Of a DNA stretch of 64,000 nucleotides, positions 5,103 through 62,796 are shown piece after piece. Each line of letters begins with the position of its first letter. Within the stretch, counting starts at the first letter, position 1. A model generated the notes under the pieces. It saw nothing but the letters and a program-made list of their open reading frames with translations, was not told the origin of the DNA and made no database searches. Origin of the DNA: Bilabrum cf. latius (Eukaryota); assembly GCA_965178125.1 (NCBI GenBank), contig OZ237737.1:372001-436000 (forward strand). Reading direction: 5' to 3'. A program made the translations under genes and the position numbers.

Positions 5103-5482
5103 TGATGGTTGGTAATGTGGATCTGTCGATCAACCGCTCAATGCTTCGCTCCCCCAGCACTCTCCCTCTCCCGCCACGCGCCACTCGTGCGCCGCTACCC
5201 ACCGTCGCCCACTCGTCTGTCGCTAGCACGGCCGTCTCCGTGCCGCCTAGGCCCGGCTGGCCGCTTTGTCCTGCCCTCAGCTTCCACTCTCGTACCTAGT
5301 ACCTGCTCCTCGTAATCTCCTCCTTCCGTGGCGCTTTGGTTTTGGCTGGTGCTTCCCCGGGCACTGGGCAGGCGGCACGGACCTTTCAAGCCGCTATGGG
5401 GACTACCTGCCACTGGCCACGGGATCTACACTGGGCCCCCCTTTTGGCTGTTCGCCCATCGAACGCCGCAAGGAACACCCAC
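5103..5482. repeat. Split direct repeat B1 (380 bp)
   Basis: Matches 3284-3663 and starts 8 nt after the YR stop codon. Confidence 0.95.
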
Positions 5483-5490
5483 TGGCCCAG

Positions 5491-11467: not shown

Positions 11468-11620
11468 TATTTCCTTTATCTTCTTCTGAATTCCCCTAAG
11501 TGAGAGCGCTGGTCTCGCTCAGCTCGTACTCGGAATTGATCCGATCAGTATACCACTATCGGCCCAAACATCACTGTACATGGATGCTCTGTATTCGTCA
11601 GTAGGGGTGCCATTGAATCA
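11466..11620. repeat. Split direct repeat A1 (155 bp), the 5' terminus of the element
   Basis: Matches 4948-5102. Confidence 0.95.
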
Positions 11621-13870: not shown

Positions 13871-14096
13871 GTCGTGGTCACCGGTCAGGAAGTGGATTTA
13901 GACTCAGATGCACGTCAATCCGAGCAGACTCCAGCGATAAATGCTTTCTCTATCCACCGATGCTTGTTGCCGCGTTTGAGTGGGAAGATTCGGTGTCTAC
14001 GCGCTGCTGCCCAAAGATCCATTGCCGAGGGCAAGATGACGAGCGAGCGGCAACAACATAACAAACTTGCAAGAAGTCCGAGTGCGCTCGGGTAGA

Positions 14097-25381: not shown

Positions 25382-26047
25382 CCGTATGAATGACCCAGGA
25401 GACCCAGTTCGTTTCGCCTCTTGAGAAGATGCCAGGACGAAATCAATTGGCGGGAGATAGGCCTACTTCAAATGTTATTCGTTGCTATCAAAGCTTCGAG
25501 CTCACTACTAGGACTGAGGTGTGCAGTGGTCGCATGCAGTGCTGTGGTCGATAATGCGGAGCTAATATTCTGCTCTTCTACAGCTCTAGCAGATGATGTA
25601 CGAATGGTCAAATGCTAATTTGAACCAAACCATGAAGTAAGTGTGCTGGAATGGCCAGGGTGGAGGCCTTCAAAAGCGGCAAGCCAGTGCATGGAGCACG
25701 GCAGTTGCAGCTGGTAGGCGGATCGCAGCAGCCATGGTGAATAGACATTATCCGTTGCATCCCTTCCCAGTCTTCTGCGCACCCTTGATGTGCTATCTTG
25801 ATTCCTGGGACCACCGCTGGGAACGCAAGCCACGCACATCATCAGTGGAGATAACCACATGCCCGGCTGGCGTGGGGGCTGACGTGCCGTTTCAATAGCG
25901 GCAATCCGAAACAGTTGCGCCATGCCACCAATCCATGTTATCGGTGTTACCCCGATGGCTATCCATTAAGACGCTTCGGTTGGGACACAGAGCGGTGCAG
26001 GCCTGGTCCCACACCGAGCAGGTGCTCCTTCAAGTTGCTCCTTCAAC

Positions 26048-27583
26048 TTATCTCAGCCCGAGGCCCATGCATCCTTGCAAGAAGAAATCCAGGGCGCGAG
26101 CAAATGCTGCGGAGGCAAGAGAAATAGAAGTTAGCGAAAGTTACGGCTGGATTAGAACAGCTGGTACACAGAGGCAGCCCGAGCCGAGCACTGGCACAGT
26201 CAACCAATAAAGCCGCGCAATACTCACATACTGGCCGTTCTGAGATAGACAGAGACCCGCCCTGCAGGTGCATTGCTTCCGTCCTGCTGCAGGCCCTGTG
26301 CAGATGGTGAAACAGCGTCTCCCTCGGCTATCCCTGCATCCCAGCGATTCTCTGCAACGCCCCAACGCTCAGACGGAGCACTTCGCCGCCCGTGTCTGCG
26401 CAGTTGGCCACGAGAGTAGCGACGCACCGCTTAGCATTTTCCCTCACCTTTGCCATATCGACCGCGTCTCGCTGCAGCCAGGACTCGATCAGGCGACGAA
26501 CGTTCCCTTCGGGCACGTCGGCAAGCGCAGCCTCGGCCGCCCTGCGCACGTGCTCTGCCGACGACCCGCTGGACATCTACGAGGTCACAAGCGCGCTGCG
26601 GGTGCTGGCAGAGCACGGGCTGCCCCCCGAGGACATGGTCATGAGCCTGGGCTGCCACAGGAGCCACTCCCTTGTGCTCGCCTCATCGCCCGTGGCGCCC
26701 ACGAGCACTTGCCCGTGCAAGAAAAACTTTTTCTTTGCGATCATGCGGAGGGAAATGTTGGCCCCCAGCCCCAGTCCCATGCACAGGAGCACCGCCTTGG
26801 TGCCGAGCTGCTGCAGCACGTCGAGCACCCCGTCAGTAATCCGGTCAATGCTCGGGTATTTGCCCTGCTCCTTCTCGTTCCAGAGAGGAGCCCCTGCGTG
26901 CTAGCCTGGAAGATCAACCATGAGTACCCTGGCGTTCCGCAAGACGGGGTGGCCCCTCAGTGATCGAAGCATGGCACTGAAGGCCATCCTGCAAGGCGTG
27001 CCAATGTCTGGAAGCAGCACAATGGTAACTTTGCCGCCCTTCTCTCCGGCAGTTGTCACAAGGAGCGGTCCAGCAGCCTTTGTAATCATGATCTCAGAGC
27101 CCACAATGTTAGCTTCAACGACCTTTGCCTGCACTTTCGCAACCGCACGCTCTCCATCTGATTTCGGCGATGAAGCATCTCCCCTGGGATCATCGTCGCG
27201 GACCGCAGCCGTCTGCGGCTAACCTTTGCCTTCATTTGTGTCTTCTCCTGCAAACCCGGTCTCATCTGCAAACTCAACGGCATCCATGCGTTGCTGGGCT
27301 TCAATGGCCTTCTCGTGGCGACGTGTCATCTTTGAGACGACTGGTCCCTGAACAGGCTTCTGCGGGTTTATGAGATGGCTTCTACACAATATACTTATGA
27401 GTCGGCCAACCTTTGCAATCGCATCGCAGGCATCGCGGAGCCCGAGTTGAAACACGTGGACAAGCGACCTACCTCGAATGAAACAAACACCAACCAGGCT
27501 ATCACTGCAATGACGCACAACCCCGCAGCAGCAGTGATAGCAGGTAGTGATAATGCACTGCTAATGACTCGTCCGATCCCCAT
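26048..27583 (-). CDS. NDRG/Ndr-like alpha/beta-hydrolase-fold protein with N-terminal membrane anchor, 3 exons (27583-27473, 27359-26228, 26106-26048)
   Basis: LLPDIG, VDLPG*HAGAP (family DAPGQ), YPSID, GLGLGANI, and C-terminal ERPVSFARALDFFLQG. Ends in TAA. Confidence 0.8.
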
Positions 27584-27854
27584 GGCCTAGCAATGTGGTG
27601 ATCTCGTTTCGCTCGGCCCGCACAAGATGCAGCAGTCGTGACGAGTGCTTTTCCGTTGGGGACAAATTTCCGCTCTTGCGCAGAAGCAAAGAATCAACCC
27701 AAACAATGGGGCAGCGGGTTGGAAGACCCGTGTATATCCAGTCGTCTCGTCCGTTTTTGAACCGTGAGATTCACAAACTGGCCTTCTGTGTCGGGGTAAA
27801 AACTGCGTTGGCTCTGGCTACTGGATCCACATTATATTTGTTTCACGCACTCAT

Positions 27855-30800
27855 ATGGAGCTTGATTCTCCGCACGATTACATATATGCTGCAGTTGATG
27901 CATCAGTGTTAGAAACACTATGGTCTAGGTTCAATGATATTGCGGAGGGCTTCGCGGTGTCGCCAGCTGAGCTTCGAGCGATTTGCGATATCCCCTCAAT
28001 GTACGTAACAAAACTTGAGATCGATGCCCTGTTTCGAGCATTGGACACTGATAACAATGGCCTCGTTGACGGGCTTGAGGTGCTTGCCGTAGCTGCCATG
28101 GCCTCTGGTCTGAACGAAGGCGCGACGGCCCGCTACATCTTCCGCCTGTTCGATTTCGATGAATCGGGCGAGCTGAGTCTAGACGAAATGACGCTTGCAC
28201 TCAAGAGCGTACTTACAGGGTCGGCAAAGCTTACCGGAGAGCTGCCGCCAGAGGACCAGGAGCTGGAGCAGATCAGCCAGCTAGCATTCCTTCGCTGCGA
28301 CAAGGACGCCGACCACAGGATCACCGTTGGCGAATTCGTCGATTTCTGCCTCGAAAATCCAGAAGCTCGGTCCTGGCTAGAGTATTATGATGATCCAGAC
28401 CAGGAGGAGACGGGCGTCGCGGGGGCAGCAGCAGCCGGCGCTACTGCCGGCAGTGGCGCTGCTGGCAAGCTGCCATTGGGCGGCGGAGCGGCCGTCTCCG
28501 TCGACCCGGAATCGGAATAGGAGCTGTCCAAAGAGGCAAGGCACATGCAGGTGGCGAACGCCCGGGGGGCGGCCTTCGAGGCTGCCCGCAGGCCAGCGCT
28601 AAGAGCCACCGTTGCCGAGGCAGTGCGCCGGAGGGCCGCGGGAGCCGAGGCGCCCCCGCCCCCTGCAGACGGCCCATGGCGCGATTCCGTGCAGTCGCTC
28701 ATCCCGTCAAGCCCAGCCGAGGCCGACGAGGGTCTCCCTGACGCTGCCCTTCAGCTGGAGTACGTGCACGGGTACAGGGGCAACGACTGCAGAGACAACG
28801 TCAAGGTTGCCGGTGACGGTAGGATCGTGTTCCCTGCCGCGGGAGTGGTGGTCATTTAGGATGCGGAGACTCGGAGCTAGGAGTACTTTTTGGAGCACGA
28901 GGACGACGTGGTGTCGCTGGCGGCACACCCCAACGGAGACCTCTTCGCCTCCGGTGAGGTAGGCAAGGCTCCCAAGATCTTCGTGTGGGACGCGATGGGA
29001 AACAGCAAGAAGAAAATGGGCGGGAGGAGTGGTACAGGCGCTGGGGAATCGAAGGAGCCTGAAGCCGCCAGCGGCGCAGGGTCCTCCTCCGCACTTGGTG
29101 CCACTGGCGGCAGCGCCCGCGATGGAAGGGGAGGCCACTCCTCCGGGCCCGACGTGGAGGACGGCGAGATGCCAGACAATGACGTGGACGCGGTCGCCTG
29201 CCTCCACGGCTTCCACACCAGAGGCGTTTCATAGCTGGCGTTCTCTCCCTCTGGAAAACTGCTCGCCTCTGTCGGGCAGGACGACGACCATTCCGTGTGC
29301 GTGTACGACTGGGCGCGTGGGGAGGTGCACCACTCGGGCAAGGGCTCCGTACGGCCAGTCTACGCCGCCGCATTCCGCGACGAGAACACGCTCGTGACGG
29401 GTGGGAAGAATCACATATATTTCTGGGACATGGCTTCCAAGACGAAGAAGAAGGGCATCTTCGGGCGGGCACCCGGCGTGAGGATGCAGACAGTGGCTTC
29501 CATCCAGCCCTTTGGTGACCCGGCGGAGGGCCTCCTGGCCACGGGCATGGCCTCGGGGCACGTGTACGTGTGGAAGGACAGGAACTGCCTACGGGCCATC
29601 AGAGCCCACGACAGGGCCGTTGCCTGCCTTCATGGAATGCCGAGCGGGCTAGCGACAGGGGGCAGCGACGGCACGGTGCGGCTGTGGACGGCGGGCTTGG
29701 AGCCGAAAGCAACCCTTGACATCACCGCGTGCGGCGGCTACGACTGCGCCGTGCGCGCCGTGGAATGGCTACCTGACTCCGGCACCGTGGTGGTGGGAAC
29801 CAAGGGCTGCGAGATCTTCGAGGTCAGGGACACTGACGGGCGGGACGCGAGGGGCGGGCCAGTCATCCAGGGGCACTGCCAGAAGGAGGTCTGGGGCCTG
29901 GCCACGCATCCGGAGAGAGGCGAGTACGTGACTGTTGGTGACGATGGGACGATGCGCGTGTGGGACTCTGCCAGTCGGCAGCTTGTGAGGATCGCGAGGC
30001 TGGGGCACCCCTCGCGGGCCGTGTGCTATTCTCCGGAGGGCGACTTCATCGCGGTTGGACTGGGCAGCGGCAGGAAGCACAGCGATCCCACCAGCGAGGC
30101 CGGGCAGGCGCACGCACAGAAAGAAGGTTCCTTCCTAGTGGTTCGTTCGGCCGACCTCGCTGTAGTGCACGCGGCAAGGGACGCGACAGAATGGATCACG
30201 CAGTGCAAGTTCTCGCCGGATGGGCGCACGCTGGCTGTTGGCTCGCGAGACAGCAAGGTGTATCTCTATAACACCGAGGACTTTTCCTTAAGGGCGGTCT
30301 GCACCCGGAATTCCTCCTTTGTTACGCACATCGATTTCTCGTCGACCGGGGATTACATCCAGTGCACGGATGGTGCCCATGAGCTCCTCTTCTACCACGC
30401 CGAGGACGGCAAGCAGGAGGCATCGAGTGCCACCATGAAGGACGTCAAATGGGCCACGCAGACGTGCACGCTCGGCTGGGCCGTGCAGGGCGTGTGGCCT
30501 CCGTACGCGGACGGCACGGACGTGAATGCGCTGGATCGTGCAAGGGGCGGGGACGTGGTTGCGGCTGCAGACGATTTCGGCAGGGTGACGCTGCGGCGGT
30601 TCCCTGCGCTGCTGCCCTCTGCGATCGCCACGGAATCGTTGGGTCACTCGTCACACGTGACGAACGTTCGGTTCACGGCCGGAGACCGCCACCTGATCAG
30701 CGTGGGAGGGAATGACAAGTCCGTGTTCCAGTGGCGCGTGTACGGGGACACGGGCCCCGGCGTGGATGCTCCGCCGGAAGAGCACGCGGTGCCGTTTGAG

Positions 30801-33800
30801 CCTCCAGAGGAAAGCGCGGCCGCCGCCGGTGCTGGGGGTAGGAAGGGCCGCACGGCGACTCGTCGCGCCCTGGATGGCGAGGACATCGACTCAGAGGACG
30901 AGGAGGACCTCGTGGATGGAGAGGAGCTGGGCCAGAGCGATGAGGCCCGCGCTGCCAAGTCGGACGACGCAGAGGCGAGGATGAGGATCAAGGAGGCAGC
31001 CGAGGCCGCAGCGGCGGGCACGCCGGGAGGCATGGCTGCCCTGACGGTCGATCTGCGGCCGTGGATGGGCACCCTTGTGAAGCCATCGGCCCCGCCTGGA
31101 TCCGACCCGGAGCTGCCCGATTGCAACCCCAGGCTGGAGTGGGTCCACGGCTACGCGGGTAGGGGCTTCCGAGGTAACGTGCACTATACGTCGGAGAGGG
31201 AGGCCGTCTGGTTTGCGGCCGCCGTGGCCGTCGTGATGGACCCCCGCCGCTGGTCCCAGAGGTTCTTCACTGGTCACACGGACGACGTGTGCTCCATCGC
31301 GAGGCACCCAGACGGCATCCACTTCGCCACGGGACAGCTGGGTGCTGAGCCTTACGTGTGCGTTTGGAGAGCCGACACGTTGGAGGAGGTCTCCCGACTC
31401 AAAGGGGCCCACGAGAGGGGCGTGTGCCAGCTCGCGTTCAGCGGCGATGGGAAGAGGTTGGCGTCCGTTGGGCTTGATGATAACCACTCCTTTGTGGTGT
31501 GGGACTGGCGCGCTGGTTCGCCCGTGTACAGCGGGCCCGGGTCGAAGCGCAAGACGCTTGGCGTCGCGCTCTCTGAAGACGGGCGGAGGTTGCTCCAGGC
31601 AGGCGTGAAGACCATCGTGGTGCACGGGCAGCAGGGCAGGAACGCGGTCAGTAGGCGGGTGAGGCTGGGGCGGCTTGGTTCGCTGCAGACGTTCCTATGC
31701 GCACAGATTCACGCGCCTGACGGGCCCGATGGGGAGGAGGTCGGCCTCGTCGGGACCGCGGACGGGCACGTGTACGTTGTGGATCTGGGTCGAAGGGTGC
31801 TTGCAGGGGCCGTCAGCGCACACAGTGGCAGCGTGTGCTCGATTGCCACCGGTGGGCCCCGTGGCTGCGTGCTCACGGGTGGAAAGGACGGCGCGATCAA
31901 GAAATGGTCGGCGCGCATGGAGCCTGACGAGTTCCGAGGAGGTCCGGGCTCCGACGCCGGCAAGGGTGGCCATTCGGGCGGGGGCAGCACCGACGCCATC
32001 TCGCTAGAGGTACAAGGGTCGGCGGGCAAGTCGGCGCGTGCCGTAGCATGGTCCCAGTGCGGGACCAGGATCCTTGCGGGCTCGTCGGGATGCGAGGTGT
32101 TCGAGTTCACCGCAGAGTCGGGGGCCAACCCGCACGAGGCTCCGCTTGTGCACTCCCACTGCAAGCACGAGCTGTGGGGTCTCGCCACGCACCCGACCCA
32201 GGGCGAGTTCGTCACGTCAGGAGACGACGGGATGATCAGGATCTGGGACATCGCCGAGAAGGCTTGCAAAGCGGTGCTGTCCATCGGCGGCATGGCGAGA
32301 GCAGTGGCCATGTCTCCGGACGGCAACGCCATCGCGGTTGGCATGGGAGGGCGGGTGGGGGCTGGGCGCAGCCGTGACGACGGCACGGTGCAGCTGTTGG
32401 CACTGGACCGGCAGTCCGACGGAACCATCGGTGGCAAGGTCCTTGCGCGGCGCCGCGACTCCCGCGAGTGGATCCAGGACATCAAGTTCTCGCCCGACGG
32501 ACGGACCATTGCGGCCGCCTCGCACGACAACAAGGTGTACCTCTACTCTGCCTCAGAGCAGGGCATGCCCCTCCGTGCGGTATTTGACAGACACCACTCA
32601 TTCATCACCCACATCGACTTCAGCAAGGACTCGAGACGGATTCAGAGCACCTGCGGGGCGCACGAACTCCTCTTTAGCGACGCGCAGACCGGTGCTCACA
32701 TCCCATCCGCTGCGGCGGTCAAGGACATCGAGTGGGCCACACAGACGTGCACGCTCGGCTGGGCCGTGCAGGGCGTGTGGCCTCCGTACGCGGACGGCAC
32801 GGACGTGAATGCGCTGGATCGTGCAAGGGGCGGGGACGTGGTTGCGGCGGCAGACGATTTCGGCAGGGTGACGCTGCGGCGGTTCCCTGCGCTCGACCCG
32901 GAGGCGTCGTGCAAGCAGCTGCTGGGTCACTCATCACACGTGACGAACGTTCGATTCGCTGCGGGCGATTCGCACCTCATTAGCGTGGGAGGCGGTGACC
33001 GTTGCGTGTTCCAGTGGCGGCTCGAAGACGACAGAGAGGCGGCCAAGCAGCTTCGGGAATCTGTCTTTGCAGGCCAGGAAGCCGTGGACGAGGACGCGGA
33101 GCTCCCGATCGAGGTGTATCGCAAGGACATGACGCAGGCGATGCGGGGCCAGGCCCCGCTCCCGTCGGCCGCCGATGGGGAGGAGGTCACCGGTGAGCTA
33201 GGGGCTGCGCTCGATGGCGCGGCCCTCGCGCAGCTCACCTCTGGAGCCACCAGCGGCGCTGATGGGTCACTTGGCGGTGGAGCCCGCGGTGGGGGCACAG
33301 GTCGCGCCGTTGATGCGCCAGCAGCTCCGGTGACGACCTCCACTGAGGGAGTGAGGGTCAGAGCAGCCAGCGCCGTGGTGGCGCTGGGCGTGAAGGAGAA
33401 CGCATCCGTGCCAGCAGGAGCGATTGCCACGGCAACGATGGACCAGTCGAAGCGCACCGCCATGGGCGTGGTTGGAGGAGGTGGGCCCGGCGGCGGGTCC
33501 TTTGGATCTACTCCAGCGTTCCGTGGTGCTCTCGTTCCCCCCACGCACCCACCGACCGCCGTGGATGCCCCGCCGAAACCCGAGCTGCGACTAGAGTGGG
33601 CCTACGGGATTCGGGCCCGGGACGCGAGGGGTGCCTGCGGGTACAACAGCACGGGTGCTCTCGTGTACGCGACCGCCGCTCTGGGGGTCGTCTATGATCA
33701 TGCCAAGCACACGCAGGTCTTCTACACTGGCCACGACGACGACGTCGTGTCGCTTGCTGTGGACCCCAGCGGTCGATTCGCGGCGACGGGTCAGCTCGGG

Positions 33801-35579
33801 TACAGGCCACGGGTGCACGTGTGGGACGCGCACTCCGGCGCGGGCTTGTGCGTGCTCCCCGTCGTGCACGGGAGCGCCGTCACTCGGCTCAGCTTCTCGG
33901 CCGACGGGAAGTCCCTCTTCTCAGCGGACGATGGGGAACCCTACACCGTCGCCATGTATTCCACGGGCTCGGGCGCATGGACCGATGGCGCGTTGCGGGC
34001 GCAGGGAACGGGGGAGCGGAAGCGGTGCTTCTTCGTGCAGGCGCTGCCCGGTGCTGACTCTAGTGCTCCGAGCGCAGCAGGCAGCGACGAAGAGTTTGTC
34101 GCGGCTACGGGCGGCAAGAACCACGTGAGGTTCTGGAGAAGGGAGGGCCGCACGCTCGAGTGCGTGAGAGGTCTCTTCGGCTCCAAGGGACGGATCCAGA
34201 GCGTGCTGTCGGCCGCCGTGGTGCGCGGCAGCCTCGTCACTGGGACGGCCAGCGGGCACCTCTACCGGTGGAAAGGAAGGGTGGTCGAGAACGCGACGCC
34301 CACGAGCGACGGTGGCAACAAGCTGCGGTCGGTGTACTGGATCGATGCACGCGGCGCTGCCGTGGTGCTGGGCCTGCGAGACGGTACGGTGAGGGTCTTC
34401 GACGCCGACCTCAAGCCGCACGACACGATCAAGCTGGATGATGCCCAGGAGAAATCGATGGACAGTGCAGTGCACGCCGTGCAGCTGCGCAGCGACGGCG
34501 AGGTGCTGCTGGCGGTGACTCGCGGCAGCGAGATCTACGAGGTGGCGCTGGCCACTGGGACGGTCACTCTCAGGGCGGAAGGGCACAGCGCCGACGAGCT
34601 CTGGGGACTCGCCGCGCACCCCTCGGCCCCGGAGCTGGCTCTGACAGCCGGTGACGACGGCAGCGTGCGCCTGTGGGACCTGCGGACTCACCGCGCGGCT
34701 CGCAAGGCCGTGCTGGAGGGCATGGCGAGAACGGTGTCATGGTCACCGGACGGGACCGTGGTGGCCGTTGGGCTGGGTGGGAGGATCGGTGGCAGGAACA
34801 CGAGGTGGAAGACGCTCGCGCCGGCAACGACGGGAGGCGGCGCCGGCATGAGCCGGCAGGAAGCAGCCAGTGCGGCGGGTGCCTCTGGGTCGAGCGCAGG
34901 CCGCGACGGTGTGTTTTCGCTGCTGCGGGCCGACACTCTCGAGGCTGTACACGAGGCAAGGGACACGACCCGTCCGCTCACCGCGCTCAAGTTCAGCGCG
35001 TCGGGGCAGCTCCTGGTGGCGGGGTCTCGGGATGGCAAGGTGTACGTGTACGACGCCAGGGGAGGCAGGTTTGCGCTGAGCCGAACGCTGTCCCGCCACG
35101 TCAGCGCGGTGACACACGTTGACGTCAGCATCGACGGGTCGCTCGTAAGGTCCCAGTCCACTAGCTACGAGCTCCTGTTTGGCCGCACCGACCAGGAGGG
35201 TGAAGTGGGCCGCGCCGAGGAGGTGCGTGACACGGCCTGGCACACCGAGACGCTGCCTATTGGATGGGCCCAGATGGGGGTCTGGCCTCCAAGCGCGGAC
35301 GGGACGGACATCAATGCCGTGGACAGGTCCCGTTCGGGGCAGCTGCTCGCGTCGGCGGACGATTTCGGAGGCGTGAAGCTGTACCGGTATCCCGCCTGCC
35401 CGCCGGGCACCGAGGGAGGTAGGTGGCGGCAGGCCTACTTCAAGAGGTACCACGGCCATGCTTCGCACGTAACCTGCGCTCGCTTCACTGCGGGTGATAA
35501 GTACTTGCTCACGACGGGCGGCGCGGATCGCACCCTCCTGCAGTGGCGGGTGATCGGGAATGACAGCATGTTGTAGTGA
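27855..35579 (+). CDS. EF-hand + EML5/6-like (three HELP/WD40 TAPE modules) microtubule-associated protein, about 2574 aa
   Basis: EF loops DTDNNGLVD, DFDESGELS, DKDADHRIT. HELP motifs LEYVHGY, LEWVHGY, LEWAYG. Many WD40 repeats. One frame with TAG at 28518, 28857, 28878, 29232 and 35574; TGA at 35577. Confidence 0.92.
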
Positions 35580-35962
35580 CGGTGCTGTCAACCACAGGAT
35601 ACTAGTAGCCTACCTCAGCTGCACGTTCTCTTCGTAGAAAGCCGCCTAAGCAGTGGACCGCACACACTCCTCAAACACAGAAAAAATCCCCAGTGCACGA
35701 AGACTTGATTGGTCACGCCGTGACCGTGACCCCGTTCTGGTGTAAATTCATAATTGCTTGCAGTGCCAATGAATGTAGAAGGGCAAGTCATTTAAAACTA
35801 GCATTTTGTGAAAGCGCATTTTGTGTGGCACGTTGACCTGGTGTTCTGGTGGTGTCTGAGTCGCTGTGCATCTGACCTGGCAGCCGTGTCCTGCCAGCAG
35901 GCCTGCGCACAACTCAAGTAGACAGCACCACAGCAGGCAGCCTGCCGGTTAGACCTTGCCCA

Positions 35963-37777
35963 TCATTCAGTCTGGTACACCACGTCCTTGATCGGCTCGA
36001 TCGAAGGGCCCACCTCCTCGCTCCCGAGCTCAAAGGTGATGGAAGCGGCCTTGGAGTCGAAGCTGTCGGGCGTAGAGAGACGCACGGTGTGCTTGCCGTC
36101 TTGCCCCCTGCCCAGCGGAAAGCTAAAGTAGGCCACCTTGGTCCCGCGGCCGAGCCCGATCGCCGACATCATGCCCTGGGAGTACACCTCGAAGGTGAGG
36201 GTCGCCACCTCTGGCACGCGCAGTTCGAGCGTCTTGCTGTTGTCCTTGAAGGTGGCCACACCGTGCTTAACCGAGGCTTTCGGGGACTTCCACTTGGTCT
36301 TGTCCTTGGGGCACCCGTGCAGCCGTGCCTGCAGCTGGGTCTTCTTGACCTTGCTGCCGAGCGAGTCGAGGCCGTGCAGTGCCAGGATCCTGACCGTCCG
36401 CTTGCTCTTCACCGCGAGGTTCTCGCCCTTGAAGGAGAAGCCCTCCAGCATCTTGCTCGAGTCCAGCAGGTGCTTGGGCTTGAGCTGGTAGCCCCCCGTT
36501 CCTAGGAAGAAGCCTTGGTTGGTCTGCACGGCCTTGGCGTTGGCCGACCGACCAAGTCGATGGTTCTAGCCATTCACAGCGACGACTTGAACCCCCTGGT
36601 GCCACTGCGGGGCCGGATCATCGTTGCCCGACAGGATTGCCCATCCAGGCGGGTACGAGCGCAAGAAGGCGAAAGTGTCGTATTTGACCATCTCAACCGA
36701 GTCTTTCGCGGCCATCTTGACCATCTTGTTGCTGTTGAAGGAGTGCGACACCGGGCGGTCCGGTAGTTCCCAGCTATCCTTCTTCTTCTTTTGGTTGGGG
36801 ATGGCAACCAGAGCCTTCAATTCTTCCACCATGGGTGGCTTGTCCTTATGCTTGCCGCTGTCGGTACCCGCTGCTGACTTCGCAGAGATGGTCTCGCCTC
36901 CCCTGAGGGCCTCATCGGATTCCTCCGTCTGCAACAGAAGCTCAATTTCTGCGTCTGTTATCTCTTTCTTGTCTGCCCCATCCACCTCGTCGTCGTTTTC
37001 GTCCTCGTTCTGCTTGTCCTTGCCCAGCTTCTCGAGGCGCTTTATGTCCTCGGGCGTGAGCTCGGCAGTGTCCTCGGTCCGCGCCGCTGCCAGCTCCTTC
37101 TCTTCTTCCGTCGGCTGAACCAGGTTGCCATCTTCTCCTGCGACAGGCAGAGGGACGCCCGGCTTGTCGCGGATCACCACCTTGCCCCTCAGCTCATCGG
37201 GGCTCGGGAACTGGCGGGGCCGCGGGTTCGGCGGAACGTACAGCATGTCGCCGAGCTCCGTCTTCAGGATCTCGGCCAGAGTCTTCTGTCCATCAGGGGA
37301 GCAGTGGTCCTCCAGAGTCAAGATCAGAGGGAGGTCAGAGTACCGCTCGTTTTCAGGGTTGAATGCCCACTGCTTGATCGCCTTGATCCCATCGATAAAC
37401 AGGAACTTCCCGGTAGGAGCTGGCCCATGCTTGACCTCAGGCCCGTCTGGTCCATCGTACACGTCGTACTCGATCACCTTGAAGCCCAGCCGCAGCAGTC
37501 GCTCAATCGCCCCTGTGCTAGTGGTGCCAACTAGCTAGTCTCCGTCCAGGTAAGAATTGTGCGACGACGAGACAAAGTAGTGGGACAGCGGATGAGTCAG
37601 ATCTTGTTCTACATTCGATGAGAGAAGGGTATCCAGATTCGGCTCTGGTGGAGTGCCATGAGCCTGGGCTGCTCCGCGGACCCCGGCGGCACTGAGCACC
37701 TTCTGCTGGGCCTCCTCGTGACGCGCTGATACGCAGAGTGCCGCAGAAATGGCCATCATGTATAATGCTGAAATCAT
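35963..37777 (-). CDS. Phosphoinositide-specific phospholipase C (X, Y and C2 domains), copy A, 604 aa
   Basis: YFVSSSHNSYLDGD*L, IEYDV, VKHG, LTLEDHC, SPDELRGK, LRSYP, GVQVVAVNG*, GGYQLKP, then C2. TAG at 37535 and 36566. Ends TGA. Confidence 0.93.
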
Positions 37778-38052
37778 TGTGTCCAGTCTAAGTGCGGTTT
37801 TCGGTCGATGCCGGGCTTTCCCCGAGCACGCTGGCTATTTTCGATCGGTGGATGCACTTAGCGGAACAATGCTTTTGCGCGGCGCCATGTGGTTTATGTG
37901 TGCCTGTTGCGAGTACTTTCACTACAAAGTCGAGAGCGGTGTATGAGTCGCTGTGCATCTTTCTGGGTGGCAGCCGTGTCCTGCCAGCAGGCCTGCGCAC
38001 AACTCAAGTAGACAGCACCACAGCAGGCAGCCTGCCGGTTAGACCTTGCCCA

Positions 38053-41000
38053 TCATTCAGTCTGGTACACCACGTCCTAGATCGGCTCGATCGAAGGGCC
38101 CACCTCCTCGCTCCCGAGCTCAAAGGTGATGGAAGCGGCCTTGGAGTCGAAGCTGTCGGGCGTAGAGAGACGCACGGTGTGCTTGCCGTCTTGCCCCCTG
38201 CCCAGCGGAAAGCTAAAGTAGGCCACCTTGGTCCCGCGGCCGAGCCCGATCGCCGACATCATGCCCTGGGAGTACACCTCGAAGGTGAGGGTCGCCACCT
38301 CTGGCACGCGCAGTTCGAGCGTCTTGCTGTTGTCCTTGAAGGTGGCCACACCGTGCTTAACCGATGCTTTCGGGGACTTCCACTTGGTCTTGTCCTTGGG
38401 ACATCCGTGCAGCCATGCCTGCAGCTGGGTCTTCTTGACCTTGCTGCCGAGCGAGTCGAGGCCGTGCAGTGCCAGGATCCTAACGGTCCGCTTGCTCCTC
38501 ACCGCGAGGTTCTCGCCCTTGAAGGAGAAGCCCTCCAGCATCTTGCTCGAGTCCAGCAGGTGCTCGGGCTTGAGCTGGTAGCCCCCCGTTCCTAGGAAGA
38601 AGCCCTGGTTGGTCTGCACGCCCTAGGCGTTGGCCGGGTGGCCAGTCCGGTAGTTCTGCGCGTTCATGGCTACGATCTGGATGCCGAGCAGCCACAGCTC
38701 CGCAGGGTCATAGTTGGCCGACCTGATCGCCAGGGCGTGAGGGTACACGCGCAATAGGTGTTCCCTTGCATACGCGATGATATCCACGGGGTTCTTCTAG
38801 GCCATCCTGATGATCTTCTTGTTGTTGAAGGAGTGCGACACAGGGCGGTCGCCCAGCTCCCAGCTATCCTTCTTCTTCTTTTGGTTGGGGATGGCAACCA
38901 GAGCCTTCAAATCTTCCTCCATGGGCGGCTTGTTCTTGTGCTTGCGGCTGTCGGCCTGAGTGGCCGACTCCACCGAGGTGCCAGCGGTTGCACTGCCCCT
39001 GAGTGCTCGGCTCTGCATCAGCGCCATGCTCGGTGGCGCTTCACTCGGTGGCGCATCGACGCTCAGCATTGGGATCTACTCATTGATCTTGCCCTCCATC
39101 TCGTCCTTGATCTTGCCCTCCACCTCATCCTCCTCTTCGGCCTTGATCTTGCCCTCCATCTCGTCCTCCACCTCATCCTCCATCTCGTCCTCCTCTTCGG
39201 CCTCCACCTCATCCTCCTCTTCGGCCTCCACCTCATCCTCCTCTTCGGCCTCCATCTTGCCCTTCATCTCGTCCTCCACCTCATCCTCCTCTTCGGCCTC
39301 GATCTTGCCCTCCATCTCGTCCTCCACCTCATCCTCCTCTTCGGTCTCGATCTTGCCCTCCATCTCGTCCTCCACCTCATCCTCCTCTTCGGCCTCCACC
39401 TCATCCTCCTCTTCGGCCTCCACCTCATCCTCCTCTTCGGCCTCCACCTCATCCTCCTCTTCATCATCCTCCTCTTCGGCCTCGATCTTGCCCTCCATCC
39501 CATCCTTCACCTCATCCTCCTCTTCGGCCTCCACCTCATCCTCCTCTTCGGCCTCGATCTTGCCCTCCATCTCGTCCTCCACCTCATCCTCCTCTTCGGC
39601 CTCGATCTTGCCCTCCATCTCGTCCTCCACCTCATCCTCCTCTTCGGCCTTGATCTTGCCCTTCATCTCGTCCTCCACCTCATCCTCCTCTTCGGCCTCC
39701 ACCTCATCCTCCTCTTCGGCCTCCAGCTTGCCCTCCTCTTCGGCCTTGATCTTGCCCTCCATCTCGTCCTCCACCTCATCCTCCTCTTCGGCCTTGATCT
39801 TGCCCTCCATCTCATCCTCCACCTCATCCTCCTCTTCGGCCTCCACCTCATCCTCCTCTTCGGCCTCCAGCTTGCCCTCCTCTTCGGCCTTGATCTTGCC
39901 CTCCATCTCGTCCTCCACCTCATCCTCCTCTTCGGCCTTGATCTTGCCCTCCATCTCATCCTCCACCTCGTCCTCCTCTTCGGCCTCCACCTCATCCTCC
40001 TCTTCGGCCTTCACCTCGTCCTCCTCTTCGGCCTCCACCTCGTCCTCCTCTTCGGCCTTGATCTTGCCCTCCATCTCGTCCTCCTCTTCGGCCTCCACCT
40101 CATCCTCCTCTTCGGCCTCCACCTCATCCTCCTCTTCGGCCTCCATCTTGCCCTCCATCTCGTCCTCCACCTCATCCTCCTCTTCGGCCTCCACCTCATC
40201 CTCCTCTTCGGCCTCCACCTCATCCTCCTCTTCGGCCTCCATCTTGCCCTCCTCTTCGGCCTTGATCTTGCCCTCCATCTCGTCCTCCACCTCATCCTCC
40301 TCTTCGGCCTCCACCTCATCCTCCTCTTCGGCCTCCACCTCATCCTCCTCTTCGGCCTCCACCTCATCCTCCTCTTCGGCCTCCACCTCATCCTCCTCTT
40401 CGGCCTCCACCTCATCCTCCTCTTCGGCCTCCACCTCATCCTCCTCTTCGGCCTTGATCTTGCCCTCCATCTCGTCCTCCATCTCATCCTCCTCTTCGGC
40501 CTTGATCTTGCCCTCCATCTCGTCCTCCACCTCATCCTCCTCTTCGGCCTTGATCTTGCCCTCCATCTCATCCTCCACCTCATCCTCCTCTTCGGCCTCC
40601 ACCTCATCCTCCTCTTCGGCCTTCACCTCGTCCTCCTCTTCGGCCTCCACCTCGTCCTCCTCTTCTTCCGTCGGCTGAACCAGGTTGCCATCTTCTCCTG
40701 CGACGGGCAGAGGGACGCCCGGCTTGTCGCGGATCACCACCTTGCCCCTCAGCTCATCGGGGCTCGGGAACTGGCGGGGCCGCGGGTTCGGCGGAACGTA
40801 CAGCATGTCGCCGAGCTCCGTCTTCAGGATCTCGGCCAGAGTCTTCTGTCCTTCAGGGGAGCAGTGGTCCTCCAGAGTCAAGATCAGAGGGAGGTCAGAG
40901 TACCGCTCGTTTTCAGGGTTGAATGCCCACTGCTTGATCGTCTTGATCCCATCGATAAACAGAAATTTTCCGGTAGGAGCTAGCCCATGCTTGACCTCAG

Positions 41001-41337
41001 GCCCGTCTGGTCCATCGTACACGTCGTACTCGATCACCTTGAAGCCCAGCCGCAGCAACCTCTCGATCGCCCCTGTGCTGGTGGTGCCCTTGAGTTGGCC
41101 TCCGTCCAGGTAAGAATTGTGCGACGACGAGACAAAGTAGTGGGACAGCGGTTGAGACAAATCTTGTTCTACATTCGATGGGAGAAGGGTATCCAGATTC
41201 GGCTCTGGTGGAGTGCCATGAGCCTGGGCTGCTCCGCGGACCCCGGCGGCACTGAGCACCTTCTGCTGGGCCTCCTCGCGACGCGCTGATACGCAGAGTG
41301 CCGCAGAAATGGCCATCATGTATAATGCTGAAATCAT
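38053..41337 (-). CDS. Phosphoinositide-specific phospholipase C, tandem copy B, with ~530-aa acidic repeat in the X-Y linker (1094 aa)
   Basis: Near-identical to copy A outside the linker. TAG at 39076, 38797, 38623 and 38077. Same C-terminus (DVVYQTE, TGA). Confidence 0.9.
39079..40669. repeat. Coding minisatellite of 24-bp (EEEDEVEA) units mixed with EDEMEGKIKA variants
   Basis: About 1.6 kb of ctcatcctcctcttcggcctccac / gatcttgccctccatctcgtc units, frame-preserving. Confidence 0.95.
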
Positions 41338-41573
41338 TGTGTCCAGGTAGTCAAAGTGCGGTTTTCGGTCGATGCCGGGCTTCTCCCGAGCACGAATCGC
41401 ACGCTGGCTCTCTGCCGTCTGCTTCCGTCGCTTTATTAAAAAATTAGCGGAACAATGCTTTTGCGCGGCGCCATGTGGTTTACGTATGCCTGTTGCGAGT
41501 ACTTTCATCACAAAGTCGGGGCTATCCATACTGAATCTGCTGGCGGGGGATCCGCGGCAACTCTGCATTCACG

Positions 41574-44500
41574 ATGGAGGATCAGGACTTATTTGATGAT
41601 TTGGCAAAGATGGAGGAGGAAATGGGCATTGCCGCGCCCGAGCCTGCGGCTGCGTCACGCAAAAGGTCTCGTAAGGACCGCGATTCTAGCTCAGGCGGGG
41701 ATTCAAATGGCTCGGCGGCTCATGGAGGCAAGGCAGGTAGTGGAATAGGAGATATTGAAGCTACTGGGGGCGATGATGAAGACGATCGCGACGCGCGGTC
41801 GCCCAGCGGGAACGACACACAGCCCCGAAGAAAGAAGAGCAGGAAAGGCAGCATCGCCGATGCTGGGGACTCAGACAACGACGAAGACAACAGCGGCGAT
41901 GATTCAGACGATGACAATGAAGCAATTGCCGCCATGTTGGGTGGGAATCGCAAGAAAGCGAAGAAGAAGAAGAAAGGCAAAGCCCGAAAGCGCAAGTCCA
42001 TGGAGCAAATAGAGCGTGAGCGCCAGAGGATCCTGAGGAATTACGTCGATGATGCTGCTGTCGAAGAAGACGACAACGCAGTGCAGCGTACGACAGAAGA
42101 GGAGAAACGAGCCACGGAGGAGGCATACAGACGGGTGAGCTCTTCATCTATAAGAATTCGGCCGATGACCGCACACACGAGCAAGCAGCGAAATAGGCGA
42201 CCATATCACGTCGTTGCTTCTATTCATTCTAATTTCACTCTTCGCAGATTCGCGCCGAGAATGACGCCCGGCGAAAATCGGCGCTCGAGCAGCGTGACGT
42301 GCACGAGATCGTGGCCGACCTTCAGCGACGCGAGAAGGAATCGGGGTACATCGCCAACACGTACGACGATGACGTCATGGACGGCGCGCAGGCGGGCGGG
42401 CAGGTCGTGGAACTGAGGCAGGCCGAGCTGCCCACCACCCGGGACCCCAAGCTCTGGCACGTCAAGTGCAAGGACGGCGCCGAAGCGGAAGTGCTCGCGG
42501 CGATCGCCAACAAGTTTCAGCAAGCCATGGCTGCGGGCAGAGCCCCGGGCATCTTCTCGGCCCTCAGCTCCCGCAAGGGAGCTATTTTTGTGGAGGCGTA
42601 CCGAGAGGCCAACGTGAAGCAGGCTCTCGAGGGCGTGACCAATGTGTACGCGTGGCGACCGGGTGGGATCAAGCTGGTGCCCATGCCAGACATGCCCAAC
42701 GTGCTCAACGCCGCCATCAAGAAGCAAAAACTGAAGAAGGGTGTGTTTGTGAGGGTGGCGCGAGGCATGTACAAGGGCGACTTGGCGCAGGTCCTCGATC
42801 TGACAGATGGGGGCGCGCAGGCCACTGTCCGCATGGTGCCCCGGCTTGACATGCATGCTCTGTCCATGACTGATGAACAGAAGAAGATGATGACGAAAAG
42901 GCGGAGAGGAATCCGCGCCCCCCAGCGCTTCTTTGACCTGGAGGAAATCCGGGCCGCCTCGCAGGGGCCCGTGGAAGTGCAGGACAGGAGGATGCCTCGG
43001 CTGGGGATCGTGGCTGATCTCTTCAAGGGGGAGACCTACCACGGCGGATTCTTGATCAAGAGCGTTAAGGTGGACTACCTCACCCAACAGGGAGCGGACC
43101 CCACACTGGACGAGATGCAGCAATTCAAGCCAAGGGGCGAGGAAGAGTCGGGGGCCGCGGGAGGCGCAGGCAGCGGGCTAGCCTCGGCGACGGAGCGCCA
43201 GTGGAGGTCCCAGATCGGCAGGGGTTTAGGAGGATCTACCAAGCGAGCGGCTGCGGCAGCCGCGAAGATAGTCGCGGGCGACCAGATCGTGGTCGTCTCT
43301 GGCGACCTGCAGGGTCTGGAGGCCAAGGTCATCTCGGTGGAGGCCACGCGCGGCTCTCTGCTGGTCCGCCCCTCTCGAGAGATGAGGGCACAGGTGGGCT
43401 TTTCTGACGACGTGGAGGTCGCGATGGAGGAGGTCAGAAAGAACGTAAAGATGGGAGACCACGTCAAGGTGGTAGGCGGCACGTACGAGGGCGAGACTGG
43501 CACCGTGGCCATCGTCGGTCCCGAGGAGCGAGAGGACGGCTCCTTTGGCAGCGAGTGGCAGGCGGTTCTGATGCTGGACGGCAGCAGGCGCGAGGCCAAG
43601 GTGAACGTGAGGGACCTGCGCAAGACGGCAGAGGTGGCCAAGGGGCTCGAGTCTCTGGACGGGTTCAAGCTGGGTGACCTGGTGACGCTCCCCACGGGTG
43701 CCGCTGGGAGGCCGCAGGCGGGCGTGGTCGTGCAGGTGGGGCGCACGCACCTGCAGGTGCTGCTGTCCTCGGACAACGTGCAGAGCCTACCGCCCTCTCA
43801 GCTGCGTCCGCACCGCGCCTCCCGCGTCGGCAGCATGGACCAGAACATGCGCCACGTCTCTGTCAGGGACGTGGTTCGCGTCATCGAGGGGCCACACAAG
43901 GGCGAGGACGGCACGGTGAGGCACATCCTCAACGGCGTGCTCTTCCTGCACTCGCACAGGCGGACTGATCGGGGCGGGTACTTTGCGGTGCGTTCCCAGG
44001 GGACGGTGGTGGCAGGCGAGAGCCAGCACGCTGGTGCTGGCGGAGTGCTCATGGGCATGGTGGCCGATGCGTCGCGCACCAGCGGGCTGGGCGGGCTGCA
44101 GACTGGTATGCTCGGGGGCGGTGGGCGCGGGCGCGGCAGGGGGCGGGGGCGCGGGCGCGGCAGCGGGCTCATTGGCCAGACCGTGCGTATCTCCACGGGA
44201 ATGTACCGGCGCAAGATCGGCGTGGTCAAGACCGAAGCCGGCGACATCCTGTCGATCGAGCTGCACAGCGGGCAGAAGAAGGTCAGGGCGAAGAGGTCAC
44301 AGGTGCAGGTGGTCGGGGACCGGAACGGCAGGGTGGGAGGCGACATCCTTGCCAACGCGCAGTACGCCGGGGCGGGTGGGATGGGCGCCGGCTTCCCTGG
44401 GATGCCGAGCGCGACCGGTTTTGGAGCGCCTGGGATTGGTGGAGCCACACCCGCCATCGGAGGAGCCACACCTGCGATCGGAGGAGCTACCCCGGCGATC

Positions 44501-56340: not shown

Positions 56341-57555
56341 TCACAGGGAGAAAGCATACAGGTGCGGAGCATGTGCCCGGCACAAAGCGCGGTCCAGTCC
56401 CACATCAGGGTCCCCTGCCGGGACCCACCATTTCCTCCTCCATGACCGTCTCTGCGTCTCACGATCCTTCAGAGAGGCTAGCATGCACGCGCTCATGCCT
56501 TTGGCCCATTGCCTCTCTATGTCCCTTAGCAAGCCGTGGGGCTTAAACATCCGTCGCTGTAGCCGAGCGTTCGCATTGGTTGCCGCTATCAGCTCTTGCG
56601 TGGCCGTGGCGGCAAGAGCAGCCGCCGCATCGCCTCGCATCCACTGCCTGCACGTCAGCTACTCCTGCTAGCGCAGCTGGTTCCTGATCACCTGCACCAC
56701 TCGGTTGGCCAGCTCCTTGACAGCTGTCCGTTCCGATGACCGCGCAATCGTACGCTCTATCCGAGTGAGTGCGTCTTCGACGATTGGCTTGGCCCTGCTG
56801 GTGCGCTCCAGCTTCTCGTCCCAAGGGTCCTGAGCGAGAGCTGTCTTCGCCCATGCTTTCCGGAGGGAGGCAGGGGACCTCCCTCTATTCTGATCCGCAT
56901 CATCGGGTTGCCACGGTCTCGTTCCGGCATGATGGTCATGCTCGGCCCGCTCCATCTGCTCTACCGCGGTGCCCATCACTTGAAGGTTGGGCGTGCCCTG
57001 TTGCGGGTATTGTCCAGCTCGGATGCGCAGAATTCGTCTTCCTTGGTGGCCGTATTCCTGCACCACCGCTGCTGTTGGCATGGCTCCTGGTCCGAAGGCA
57101 TACCGTCCCTTCGTTGCGTACCGGTTAAGCATGACCACTCCGAGCGCAGCTCTCTCCCGGTCCCAATCCGACAGTGCCGGATCGTGCGAGCATCCCAGGC
57201 TCAGGCTTGTGAACGATCGGTCAGCAGCTCCGGATTTGGATTTCCTCCACTTTGTGATTTTTTTTGCAGTCTCCTGGCATCCCAGCCAGTCCTTCGCGTC
57301 ATCGATCCGGTGGGTCCACCCTGCCATCTTGATCCTGAATCCCAGTGCCAGCGCGGCCCCGAGTGGGCCTGTCTGTACTGGTGGTCCCTGCAGGAATCGG
57401 CCCTGGTGGATGAACCTGGCCGCAACATCAAGGCCCTTCTTCGAGGGACACTCGATCAGGTTGCGGCGCGCGCAGTGTTGCGTGCAAAAACCGATATACA
57501 TCCACGAGAAACGCGGATGCCTCATCCGGGATCCAACAAGCCACAGTGCTCCCAT
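56341..57555 (-). CDS. Hypothetical protein (about 400 aa)
   Basis: Two same-frame fragments joined by CGC TAG CAG GAG TAG. Ends TGA. Start is uncertain. Confidence 0.55.
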
Positions 57556-57568
57556 TCAATGCAAAAAC

Positions 57569-58882: not shown

Positions 58883-59066
58883 GGTAATTGAATGGATGAA
58901 ATGCTTTACACCGTGGCTACGAACTCGCTGCAGTAGTAGAGAGTTTGGCTTCAATCGATGGCGAAGTGTTGCCATCATCAGAACGCAGGCATCGAAGTCG
59001 CCCGAGGTGACGGTGGTCGCAAATGGAATGGCTGAACAGTTCGTAATTTACACACCGAGCTGAATA

Positions 59067-62663: not shown

Positions 62664-62796
62664 GCAAGCAGTCGCATGCCACCGGCTTGGTCGCAAAAAG
62701 AAGAGGGGGGGGAATCTGATATTTTGTGGACTCAACTCAAAAGCGCACGCTATCACGAAGAAACATCTGGAACGAGGGCCCGGGACCTACCAGACT

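Follow-up and report, generated by a model that had tools for sequence, protein, structure and literature searches.

TAG read as glutamine in tandem phospholipase C genes and their neighbours in a GC-rich, intron-poor eukaryotic genome

The analysis of a 64-kb stretch of DNA (hereafter, the window) gave strong grounds for concluding that it comes from a GC-rich, intron-poor nuclear genome that uses TAG as a regular sense codon for glutamine, with TGA as the working terminator, and that a tandem pair of phospholipase C (PLC) genes in the window is functional and transcribed. The glutamine reading follows from 62 in-frame TAG codons taken together with their match to glutamine in homologs, purifying selection, and their presence in the RNA of sequencing runs with spliced reads. 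The window has a GC content of about 60% and appeared to be intron-poor nuclear DNA of a microbial eukaryote; spliceosomal introns were present, as were genes restricted to eukaryotes (EML, SPT5 and a mitochondrial carrier).

The tandem PLC genes, their in-frame TAG codons and the glutamine codons opposite them are located as follows.

38053..41337, minus strand: PLC copy B coding sequence (1094 codons plus TGA; open reading frame open upstream to 41568)
41095..41097, minus strand: CAA (Gln), the copy B codon facing the X-box TAG of copy A
38969..40750, minus strand: acidic linker of copy B, built of tandem repeats (EEEDEVEA-type units, 12-, 24- and 36-nt periods; repeat family D1)
39076..39078, minus strand: in-frame TAG of copy B at the linker end (edge of the acidic linker), without a copy A counterpart
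38797..38799, minus strand: TAG within the copy B Y domain, in frame (RMA-TAG-KNP); copy A has GCG (Ala) here
38656..38658, minus strand: CAG (Gln), the copy B codon facing the Y-box TAG of copy A
38623..38625, minus strand: TAG of copy B, in frame (ANA-TAG-GVQ); copy A has AAG here (36533-36535)
38077..38079, minus strand: TAG of copy B, in frame, 7 codons ahead of TGA; copy A has AAG here (35987-35989)
38053..38055, minus strand: TGA stop of copy B (codon alignment)
37835..37837, minus strand: TAG in the upstream extension of the copy A reading frame, beyond the RNA contig end (37823) and upstream of the A/B likeness
35963..37777, minus strand: PLC copy A coding sequence (604 codons plus TGA; reading frame, translation, Pfam, phmmer, RNA contig)
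37535..37537, minus strand: X-box TAG of copy A, in frame (LDGD-TAG-LVG), opposite CAA at 41095-41097 of copy B
36566..36568, minus strand: Y-box TAG of copy A, in frame (VAVNG-TAG-N), opposite CAG at 38656-38658 of copy B
35963..35965, minus strand: TGA stop of copy A (codon alignment)

Three of these TAGs (copy B 38797-38799 and 39076-39078, and the upstream 37835-37837) were additional to those listed in an earlier note on this DNA. The copy A reading frame is open upstream to 37888, and the likeness between the copies begins at MISALYMM; the extension is probably untranslated, and the TAG at 37835-37837 is probably 5' flank and non-coding.

Both proteins matched PI-PLC-X (PF00388; 144.1 bits for copy A and 140.6 for copy B, Pfam cut-off 23.1) and PI-PLC-Y (PF00387; 55.2 and 71.3 bits, cut-off 28.8). 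Copy A consists of a signal-peptide-like N-terminus, PI-PLC X, a short acidic linker, PI-PLC Y and a C2-like C-terminus, and copy B has the same architecture with an acidic repeat of roughly 540 residues in the X-Y linker. The copies resemble eukaryotic PI-PLCs of the delta/gamma/zeta type (X-Y-C2 core) in their X and Y halves, and the phmmer alignment with PLC gamma-2 and delta-1 continued through the C2 region of both. They differ in the hydrophobic, signal-peptide-like N-terminus, in the added linker of copy B and in lacking a detected PH or EF-hand domain; the Pfam search for C2, PH and EF-hand gave no match at E ≤ 0.001 in either copy.

Codon alignment of the two copies reproduced the juxtapositions described in the earlier note. 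Copy A has GAC TAG CTA (37535-37537) where copy B has GGC CAA CTC, and GGC TAG AAC (36566-36568) where copy B has GCG CAG AAC; conversely, the copy B TAGs at 38623 and 38077 lie opposite AAG, and the C-termini are identical after 38077. The pair had been put forward as an internal control sufficient in itself, and this was upheld only in part. The interchange of TAG with CAA and CAG is plainly seen; however, the change from CAG or CAA to TAG is the classic nonsense transition, so a fresh pseudogene would look the same as a paralog with TAG at glutamine sites. The sites opposite AAG show only that TAG is tolerated. What settled the matter lay outside the pair: the homologs, the RNA, an ortholog and the other genes.

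The alignment with PI-PLC relatives, which the earlier note had proposed as a check, supported glutamine at the two TAGs within the copy A coding sequence. In the domains aligned from the 150 best PI-PLC relatives, glutamine filled the X-box TAG column in 151/151 cases and the Y-box column in 139/139. Only 4 of the 236 well-covered columns were at least 95% glutamine, and the two TAGs occupy two of them, for which random placement has a probability of about 2e-4. Both PLC gamma-2 and delta-1 have Q at the X-box site (phmmer alignment) and at the Y-box site (ALNFQ). These relatives came from an exhaustive representative search; an earlier word-indexed search with copy A had returned only 2 matches. 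The columns of the copy B TAGs were variable, with K 34, E 14, A 11, R 10 and Q 10 of 124 residues at 38797 and A 16, K 12 and R 10 of 92 at 38623, glutamine being the commonest residue at neither. A stop at 38623 would delete the entire C2-like domain; in copy A, the coding TAGs precede the Y domain and the C2-like region.

The 62 in-frame TAGs were distributed over 11 Pfam-supported genes (11,055 codons) of the window. The same genes contained no in-frame TAA, and TGA only as their 11 terminal codons, while their other two frames held 81 and 69 TAG, 30 and 33 TAA, and 188 and 242 TGA. When TAG was freed, the codons in open reading frames of at least 300 codons rose from 11,212 with the standard stops to 29,727; freeing TGA likewise lengthened reading frames (94 vs. 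20), so their length alone is not decisive. TAA was rare (185 in 64 kb) and ended none of the Pfam-supported genes. Reading it as sense extended only the polyprenyl synthase among the supported genes, at the N-terminus and with sequence of non-coding appearance. In these 64 kb of DNA, with TAA counted as a stop when reading frames were defined and never in frame, the code looks like one in which TAG alone has passed to glutamine and TGA is the working stop. As in other UAG-to-Gln lineages, the codon would be decoded by a tRNA-Gln with the anticodon CUA, and the release factor would no longer recognise UAG. No tRNA gene of any kind was found in the 64-kb window, and eRF1 was not among its genes.

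Dual-use codes, in which one codon has both meanings, occur in Condylostoma, karyorelicts and Blastocrithidia-type organisms. A code of this kind, with TAG encoding glutamine inside genes and still ending some of them by context, is unlikely here. It would draw on the last sense codon of EML, which is TAG with TGA directly after it, and on a TAG in the mitochondrial carrier gene 12 codons before its TGA. Moreover, reading frames run on past an in-frame TAG to the next TGA, and termination at such a TAG is invisible to this analysis. Against it, none of the 20 long reading frames in the window needed TAG as a stop (TGA ended 19 and TAA one), the protein ends coincided with the C-termini of homologs where checked (polyprenyl synthase and both PLC copies), and the in-frame count of 62 TAGs is close to the off-frame 69-81, as for an unconstrained sense codon.

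The meaning of TAG was also addressed in the other genes. In a Codetta-like scoring of 8 TAG columns, each with at least 20 homolog residues, glutamine scored best (-17.3), ahead of glutamate (-28.2) by 10.9 log units and followed by aspartate (-34.6); the procedure recovered the standard meaning for 8/8 control codons. The mean glutamine frequency was 0.303 in TAG columns, 0.302 in CAA columns, 0.21 in CAG columns and 0.037 over all 1,942 columns. At single sites, Q was present opposite EML codon 342 in human EML1 and in each of the two internal repeats, opposite EML codon 460 in one internal repeat, and opposite Ndr codon 263 in NDRG1. The column of EML codon 335 is M/Y, and polyprenyl synthase codons 97, 100 and 109 fall in variable columns in which glutamine is not the commonest residue. 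The homolog search for SPT5 gave no aligned residues at its TAG (best matches ≤ 36% identity), a PDB search with the DMFA2-like protein gave no matches, and a Pfam search at E ≤ 0.5 returned no match to the flanking reading frames of a retroelement or to low-complexity genes.

A syntenic metagenome locus (L001) encodes a polyprenyl synthase with 77% identity and a DMFA2-like protein with 52%; TAG occurs in frame 15 times at this locus, and TGA terminates both genes. Of the 7 TAG sites compared in well-aligned context, 3 pair with CAA or CAG and the other 4 with GCG, GCC, TCA or GAG. Paralogs were tabulated across the window alone; in a further pair there (57459-58980 and 61129-62666), TAG is kept in both copies, which makes that pair uninformative on meaning. 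It is very unlikely that TAG is sense but encodes some residue other than glutamine, such as Glu, Lys, Leu or Tyr, or that its decoding is ambiguous. The columns that could suggest it are polyprenyl synthase codon 362, where 86 of 120 wider homologs have E, and copy B 38797, with its 34 K of 124. The four closest relatives, however, all have Q at codon 362, two columns are invariant for glutamine, glutamine leads in the scoring, and TAG pairs with CAA/CAG in both paralog and ortholog. The earlier proposal that TAG acts as a glutamine codon was borne out by the invariant columns, the scoring and the syntenic ortholog.

That the PLC pair includes a young pseudogene, or consists of two, with TAGs arising by nonsense mutation from CAG or CAA and from AAG, is extremely unlikely. 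Nonsense codons arise most often by C-to-T change at glutamine codons, and the TAG at 38077 must be recent, being the sole nucleotide difference between the copies in the last 112 codons. Nevertheless, copy A continues for 523 codons past its first TAG without TGA or TAA, which make up roughly 2% of codons in the other frames. The A/B comparison gave dN/dS values of 0.26 for the N-terminus and X (dS 0.083), 0.34 for the Y region (dS 0.72) and 0.25 for the C-terminus (dS 0.039); the earlier note had named a ratio near 1 as the mark of unexpressed pseudogenes. Copy A, with TAG read as Q, agrees with 33 of the 34 columns whose conservation in PI-PLC relatives is 95% or more, the single mismatch being Ala for Arg at query position 380. 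Conservation extends to the catalytic-site residues of the X/Y barrel, with the HN, ExD and H motifs lining up with PLC delta-1. A full-length RNA contig covers copy A, and TAGs occur also in the other 9 conserved genes and in the retroelement, which has 100% identical split direct repeats.

Four sequencing runs from four studies were compared with the window. Joints of GT..AG type were spliced in the Ndr gene in runs X3 and X7 (two studies), and the DNA run X2 reads through them; X3 and X7 thus contain RNA, a status taken from these joints, no run being on record as RNA. In X7, one contig of 2,023 nt (35801-37823) covered all of copy A with both coding TAGs, with 0 differences and 0 gaps, and X3 covered 35790-36514 and 37100-37802 of the region. 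The TAG at 37535 was unchanged in the RNA contigs of both runs (X7 record 21, X3 record 15), and the Ndr exon at 26228-27359, with 4 TAGs, also showed 0 differences in RNA. The earlier note had held that transcripts lacking the PLC TAGs would speak against its reading, and those of copy A kept them. The copy B TAG sites had RNA cover from X3 only (bin depth 7.19) and none from X7. Two stretches without cover, 32928-36391 in X2 and 38124-38960 (copy B) in X7, give no evidence either way, and the comparison left out the copy B acidic repeat linker, the TAG at 39076 and the SPT5 intron. The chance that the TAGs are absent from the message through assembly or sequencing error, RNA editing (U to C) or intron removal is negligible, as none of the four runs differed from the DNA at any TAG and the only joints were those of the Ndr gene and an odd one within EML. 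The latter, seen in run X8 (34377 to 34489, GA..GC, side 25), was set aside as likely foreign or repeat-derived.

Nuclear codes with UAG alone reassigned to glutamine (NCBI table 15 type) are exemplified in PMC11687900 by Iotanema spirale, Protocruzia tuzeti and two phyllopharyngean ciliate lineages. The present code is alike in TAG as sense for glutamine and in TAA unseen as sense (0 vs. 30-33 off frame); it differs in a probable stramenopile host and a GC-rich genome, and TGA ends 11/11 supported genes. Codes with UAR as glutamine (NCBI table 6) have been described, among the cases given in PMC11687900 and PMC2984419, in many ciliates, Hexamita, ulvophycean green algae, Streblomastix and Amoeboaphelidium. 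These share the capture of a stop codon for glutamine and TGA as the sole working stop, but TAA is also glutamine there, whereas here TAA as sense extends only the polyprenyl synthase N-terminus. The 'code 15' of crAss-like and other phages (low-GC, with suppressor tRNAs late in infection, according to PMC9523058) gives the same codon the same new meaning; here it occurs in a eukaryotic nuclear locus with spliceosomal introns.

On the evidence of one gene, the organism probably belongs to the stramenopiles, near Cafeteria. In the literature searched, no report of nuclear TAG reassignment in stramenopiles was found (PMC10120064 concerned Streblomastix only), and the finding is possibly a known kind of code variant in a new lineage. 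Only tentatively would we suggest the first nuclear stop-codon reassignment in stramenopiles: TAG alone to glutamine in a GC-rich bigyran near Cafeteria, common to at least two organisms (those of the window and of L001), with TGA practically the sole terminator. Should the stramenopile assignment stand, and the absence of an earlier description with it, the list of code variants would gain a major eukaryotic group. Every independent TAG-to-Gln lineage is a natural replicate for stop-codon capture. A GC-rich genome with TAG, and apparently not TAA, as sense offers a useful contrast to AT-rich ciliates and would test whether UAA and UAG must evolve together. Standard-code annotation would break nearly all genes of the organism, and database fragments of relatives (such as P0005, P0030 and P0155) may be cut likewise.

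Within the PLC pair, TAG would now be freely swapped with CAA and CAG under purifying selection. Both tandem genes would be functional, transcribed PI-PLC paralogs between which the three codons exchange as synonyms, and TAG may also arise at variable sites by single-base change from AAG or GCG. If this is indeed the first stramenopile case, the paralogs capture ongoing synonymous turnover of TAG, CAA and CAG after a code change. The divergence between the copies is mosaic (dS 0.08, 0.72 and 0.04 from the N-terminus to the C-terminus); the best account of this is that the duplication is older and that gene conversion has since made its ends alike again.

In the window, TAG is a translated sense codon, for which glutamine is the best-supported meaning, and TGA terminates. 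The 11 Pfam-supported genes (11,055 codons) contained 62 in-frame TAG codons and no TAA, with TGA present solely as the last codon; the other two frames of these genes held 81 and 69 TAG, 30 and 33 TAA, and 188 and 242 TGA. Nineteen of 20 long ORFs ended in TGA. When TAG was freed, ORFs of at least 300 codons rose from 20 (11,212 codons) under standard stops to 53 (29,727 codons). Freeing TGA gave 94, as expected for the commonest stop triplet, and since this too lengthens ORFs, ORF length was taken as supportive only.

Reading under table 6 (TAA and TAG both Gln) added one extension only, non-coding in appearance. Given this and the lack of in-frame TAA, the code resembles the TAG-only type (table 15 type); TAA is rare and never the stop of any supported gene. 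The EML gene ends with TAG as its last sense codon and TGA directly after, which could suggest a dual-use code with TAG as both sense codon and stop, a reading considered improbable. By analogy with other UAG-to-Gln lineages, TAG would be decoded by a tRNA-Gln(CUA), and eRF1 would have lost UAG recognition. No tRNA genes were present in the 64-kb window.

Two ORFs in tandem, 641 and 1171 codons long and each terminated by TGA, occupy the minus strand at 35963-41568 once TAG is read as sense; they encode the PI-PLC paralogs copy A and copy B. PI-PLC-X scored 144.1 bits in copy A and 140.6 bits in copy B, and PI-PLC-Y scored 55.2 and 71.3 bits, respectively (Pfam). The phmmer alignments of PLC gamma-2 and delta-1 to the copies extended into the C2 region. 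The extents listed below were chosen because the likeness between the copies begins only at MISALYMM... (37777 in copy A, 41337 in copy B) and the RNA contig of copy A stops at 37823; a TAG at 37835-37837, upstream of this copy A start, is thus probably untranslated. The four TAG interchanges described in the earlier note agreed, with their coordinates, with the codon alignment of both copies, which also yielded two copy B TAG codons that had been missed (38797-38799 and 39076-39078).

Features of the PLC pair (minus strand; sites from the codon alignment)
35963-37777: copy A coding sequence, most likely extent, 604 codons
38053-41337: copy B coding sequence, most likely extent, 1094 codons
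37535-37537 and 41095-41097: X-box site, TAG in copy A, CAA in copy B
36566-36568 and 38656-38658: Y-box site, TAG in copy A, CAG in copy B
36533-36535 and 38623-38625: variable site, AAG in copy A, TAG in copy B
35987-35989 and 38077-38079: variable site, AAG in copy A, TAG in copy B
38797-38799: TAG in copy B, GCG in copy A
39076-39078: TAG in copy B, no copy A partner
38969-40750: copy B X-Y linker repeats, 12/24/36-nt tandem units encoding EEEDEVEA/EDEMEGKIKA-type acidic segments

These repeats, about 1.7 kb in all, are the main difference of copy B; the copy A linker is short, acidic and non-repetitive. Both PLCs have a hydrophobic, signal-peptide-like start, MISALYMMAISAALCVSAR (37700-37777 and 41260-41337), and no PH or EF-hand domains were detectable in either copy. 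Such a combination is uncommon for a eukaryotic PI-PLC, a hint that the enzyme may be secreted, lumenal or anchored in a membrane.

Copy A, its TAG codons rendered as X, was aligned with the best 150 of 3,409 representative-library matches. In all 151 domains aligned there, the X-box TAG column held glutamine, as did the Y-box TAG column in 139 of 139. Only four of the 236 well-covered columns were at least 95% Gln, and the copy A codons there were TAG, CAG, CAA and TAG. The copy B TAG columns were variable (K in 34/124 at one, A in 16/92 at the other). The pair illustrates well how TAG, CAA and CAG are exchanged synonymously. It falls short of the sufficient internal control for which it had been taken: CAG or CAA to TAG is a standard nonsense transition, and a young pseudogene would therefore likewise place TAG at Gln sites. 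The reading of TAG as a Gln synonym is nonetheless supported by homolog, selection, RNA and ortholog evidence, together with other genes of the window.

The dN/dS near 1 that the earlier note had named as a sign of pseudogenes was not observed between the copies; the ratio was 0.25-0.34 in all three segments, with small counts in the two flanking ones.

Divergence between copy A and copy B (dN/dS of the first and last segments from small counts)
N-terminus and X segment: dS 0.083, dN/dS 0.26, 9 amino-acid differences in 226
Y region: dS 0.72, dN/dS 0.34
C-terminal 183 codons: dS 0.039, dN/dS 0.25

The mosaic dS suggests an older duplication, with both ends later gene-converted. The last 112 codons differ only by AAG/TAG at 38077, which is thus a recent mutation.

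Contigs of four sequencing runs were compared with window positions 26000-38960. Those of X3 and X7, from two studies, contained joints inside the Ndr gene (26106>26228 and 27359>27473) with CT..AC ends, equivalent to GT..AG on the gene's own strand, and those of X2 were unbroken across both; X3 and X7 therefore hold spliced RNA, and X2 is DNA.

Introns of the window
26107-26227, minus strand: Ndr-family intron, 121 nt, GT..AG, X3/X7 spliced contigs
27360-27472, minus strand: Ndr-family intron, 113 nt, GT..AG, X3/X7 spliced contigs
Near 42175-42255: probable SPT5 intron, from a frame change
Between NPTDV and VKVRMQ: probable in-frame intron of the mitochondrial carrier gene

A single X7 contig (35801-37823, 2,023 nt) spanned the entire copy A with no differences and no gaps, so that both TAGs stood unchanged in RNA, contrary to the possibility that transcripts lack these codons. 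X3 covered 35790-36514 and 37100-37802 of this region, and the Ndr exon at 26228-27359, with four TAGs, was covered with no differences. Coverage of copy B was confined to one X3 loose end fitting its acidic linker and to 38557-38960, where the bin depth was 7.19. No altered letter was seen at TAG sites in any of the four runs (26000-38960).

Of ten TAG columns, two lacked aligned residues and were dropped; the other eight had 20 or more homolog residues each, and a Codetta-like score over these was -17.3 for Gln, -28.2 for Glu and -34.6 for Asp; the same scoring recovered the standard residue for CAG, CAA, AAG, GAG, CTG, TAC, TGG and TCG. The mean Gln frequency was 0.303 in TAG columns, 0.302 in CAA columns and 0.21 in CAG columns, against 0.037 overall. 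Individual EML codons varied: TAG 342 corresponds to Q in human EML1 and both internal repeats, TAG 460 to C in EML1 and Q/R in the repeats, and TAG 335 to Y in EML1 and M/Y in the repeats. At Ndr TAG 263, NDRG1 has Q and NDRG2 has M. At polyprenyl synthase TAG 362, all four of the closest relatives have Q, although 86 of 120 wider homologs have E.

L001, a syntenic metagenome locus of a relative, carries a polyprenyl synthase (77% identity to that of the window) and, encoded on the other strand, a DMFA2-like gene (52% identity); both end in TGA, and 15 in-frame TAGs were counted. Three of the seven TAG sites in well-aligned context had a CAA/CAG partner, the others GCG, GCC, TCA and GAG. The TAGs and this pairing indicate a code common to both organisms that predates their split. 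P0005, P0030 and P0155, the closest database relatives of copy A (60% identity) and the polyprenyl synthase (85%), are fragments of just 248, 160 and 244 aa, as expected if cut at TAG by standard-code gene calling or at contig ends. L001 is nearly identical to P0155.

Eukaryote-only proteins of the window include a triple-TAPE EML, SPT5, a mitochondrial carrier, polyprenyl synthase, RMI1 and an FWWh protein. Of the top 120 polyprenyl-synthase matches, 15 carried an organism name, all from stramenopile genera; Cafeteria was the closest of these (56% identity). A tree of 21 sequences (window, L001, 12 named and seven unnamed matches, leaving out the other 101) grouped the window, L001 and P0155 (support 100/100) inside a clade with Cafeteria (95/98), apart from ochrophytes and oomycetes, under midpoint rooting only and with a long-branch warning. 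This one gene tentatively places the organism among stramenopiles near Cafeteria.

Genetic codes with TAG reassigned to Gln are already known. Passages of PMC11687900 list ciliates, ulvophytes, Hexamita, Streblomastix and Amoeboaphelidium for UAR-to-Gln, and Iotanema, Protocruzia and phyllopharyngeans for UAG only; stramenopiles are absent from both lists there. No description of nuclear TAG reassignment in stramenopiles was found in full-text searches that covered few subscription journals, and the lineage is possibly one without an earlier description of this code.

The EML-like gene (27855-35579), 2574 codons long and apparently free of introns, encodes three TAPE units (double beta-propellers) in tandem. 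The DMFA2-like gene (14067-18557, 1496 codons) has an N,N-dimethylformamidase beta-subunit-like C-terminal domain, PF20254, of a mostly bacterial family, and its counterpart in the relative (L001 1249-5016) likewise adjoins a polyprenyl synthase. A retroelement on the minus strand (3284-11620) comprises ORFs of 846, 783 and 442 aa, the middle one a reverse transcriptase (RVT_1, YIDD motif) with the 846-aa ORF upstream and the 442-aa ORF downstream. It has split direct repeats with 100% identity (4948-5102 = 11466-11620; 3284-3663 = 5103-5482), in a DIRS/Ngaro-like layout. The third ORF gave no match in a Pfam search and bears, by eye, a likeness to tyrosine recombinases. Across its three ORFs there are 25 in-frame TAGs; this apparently recent mobile element thus likewise uses TAG as sense. 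A 1.5-kb segment is duplicated at 57459-58980 and 61129-62666 (93.6% identical), with paralogous ORFs of 346 and 338 codons in which two TAG codons occupy matching positions.
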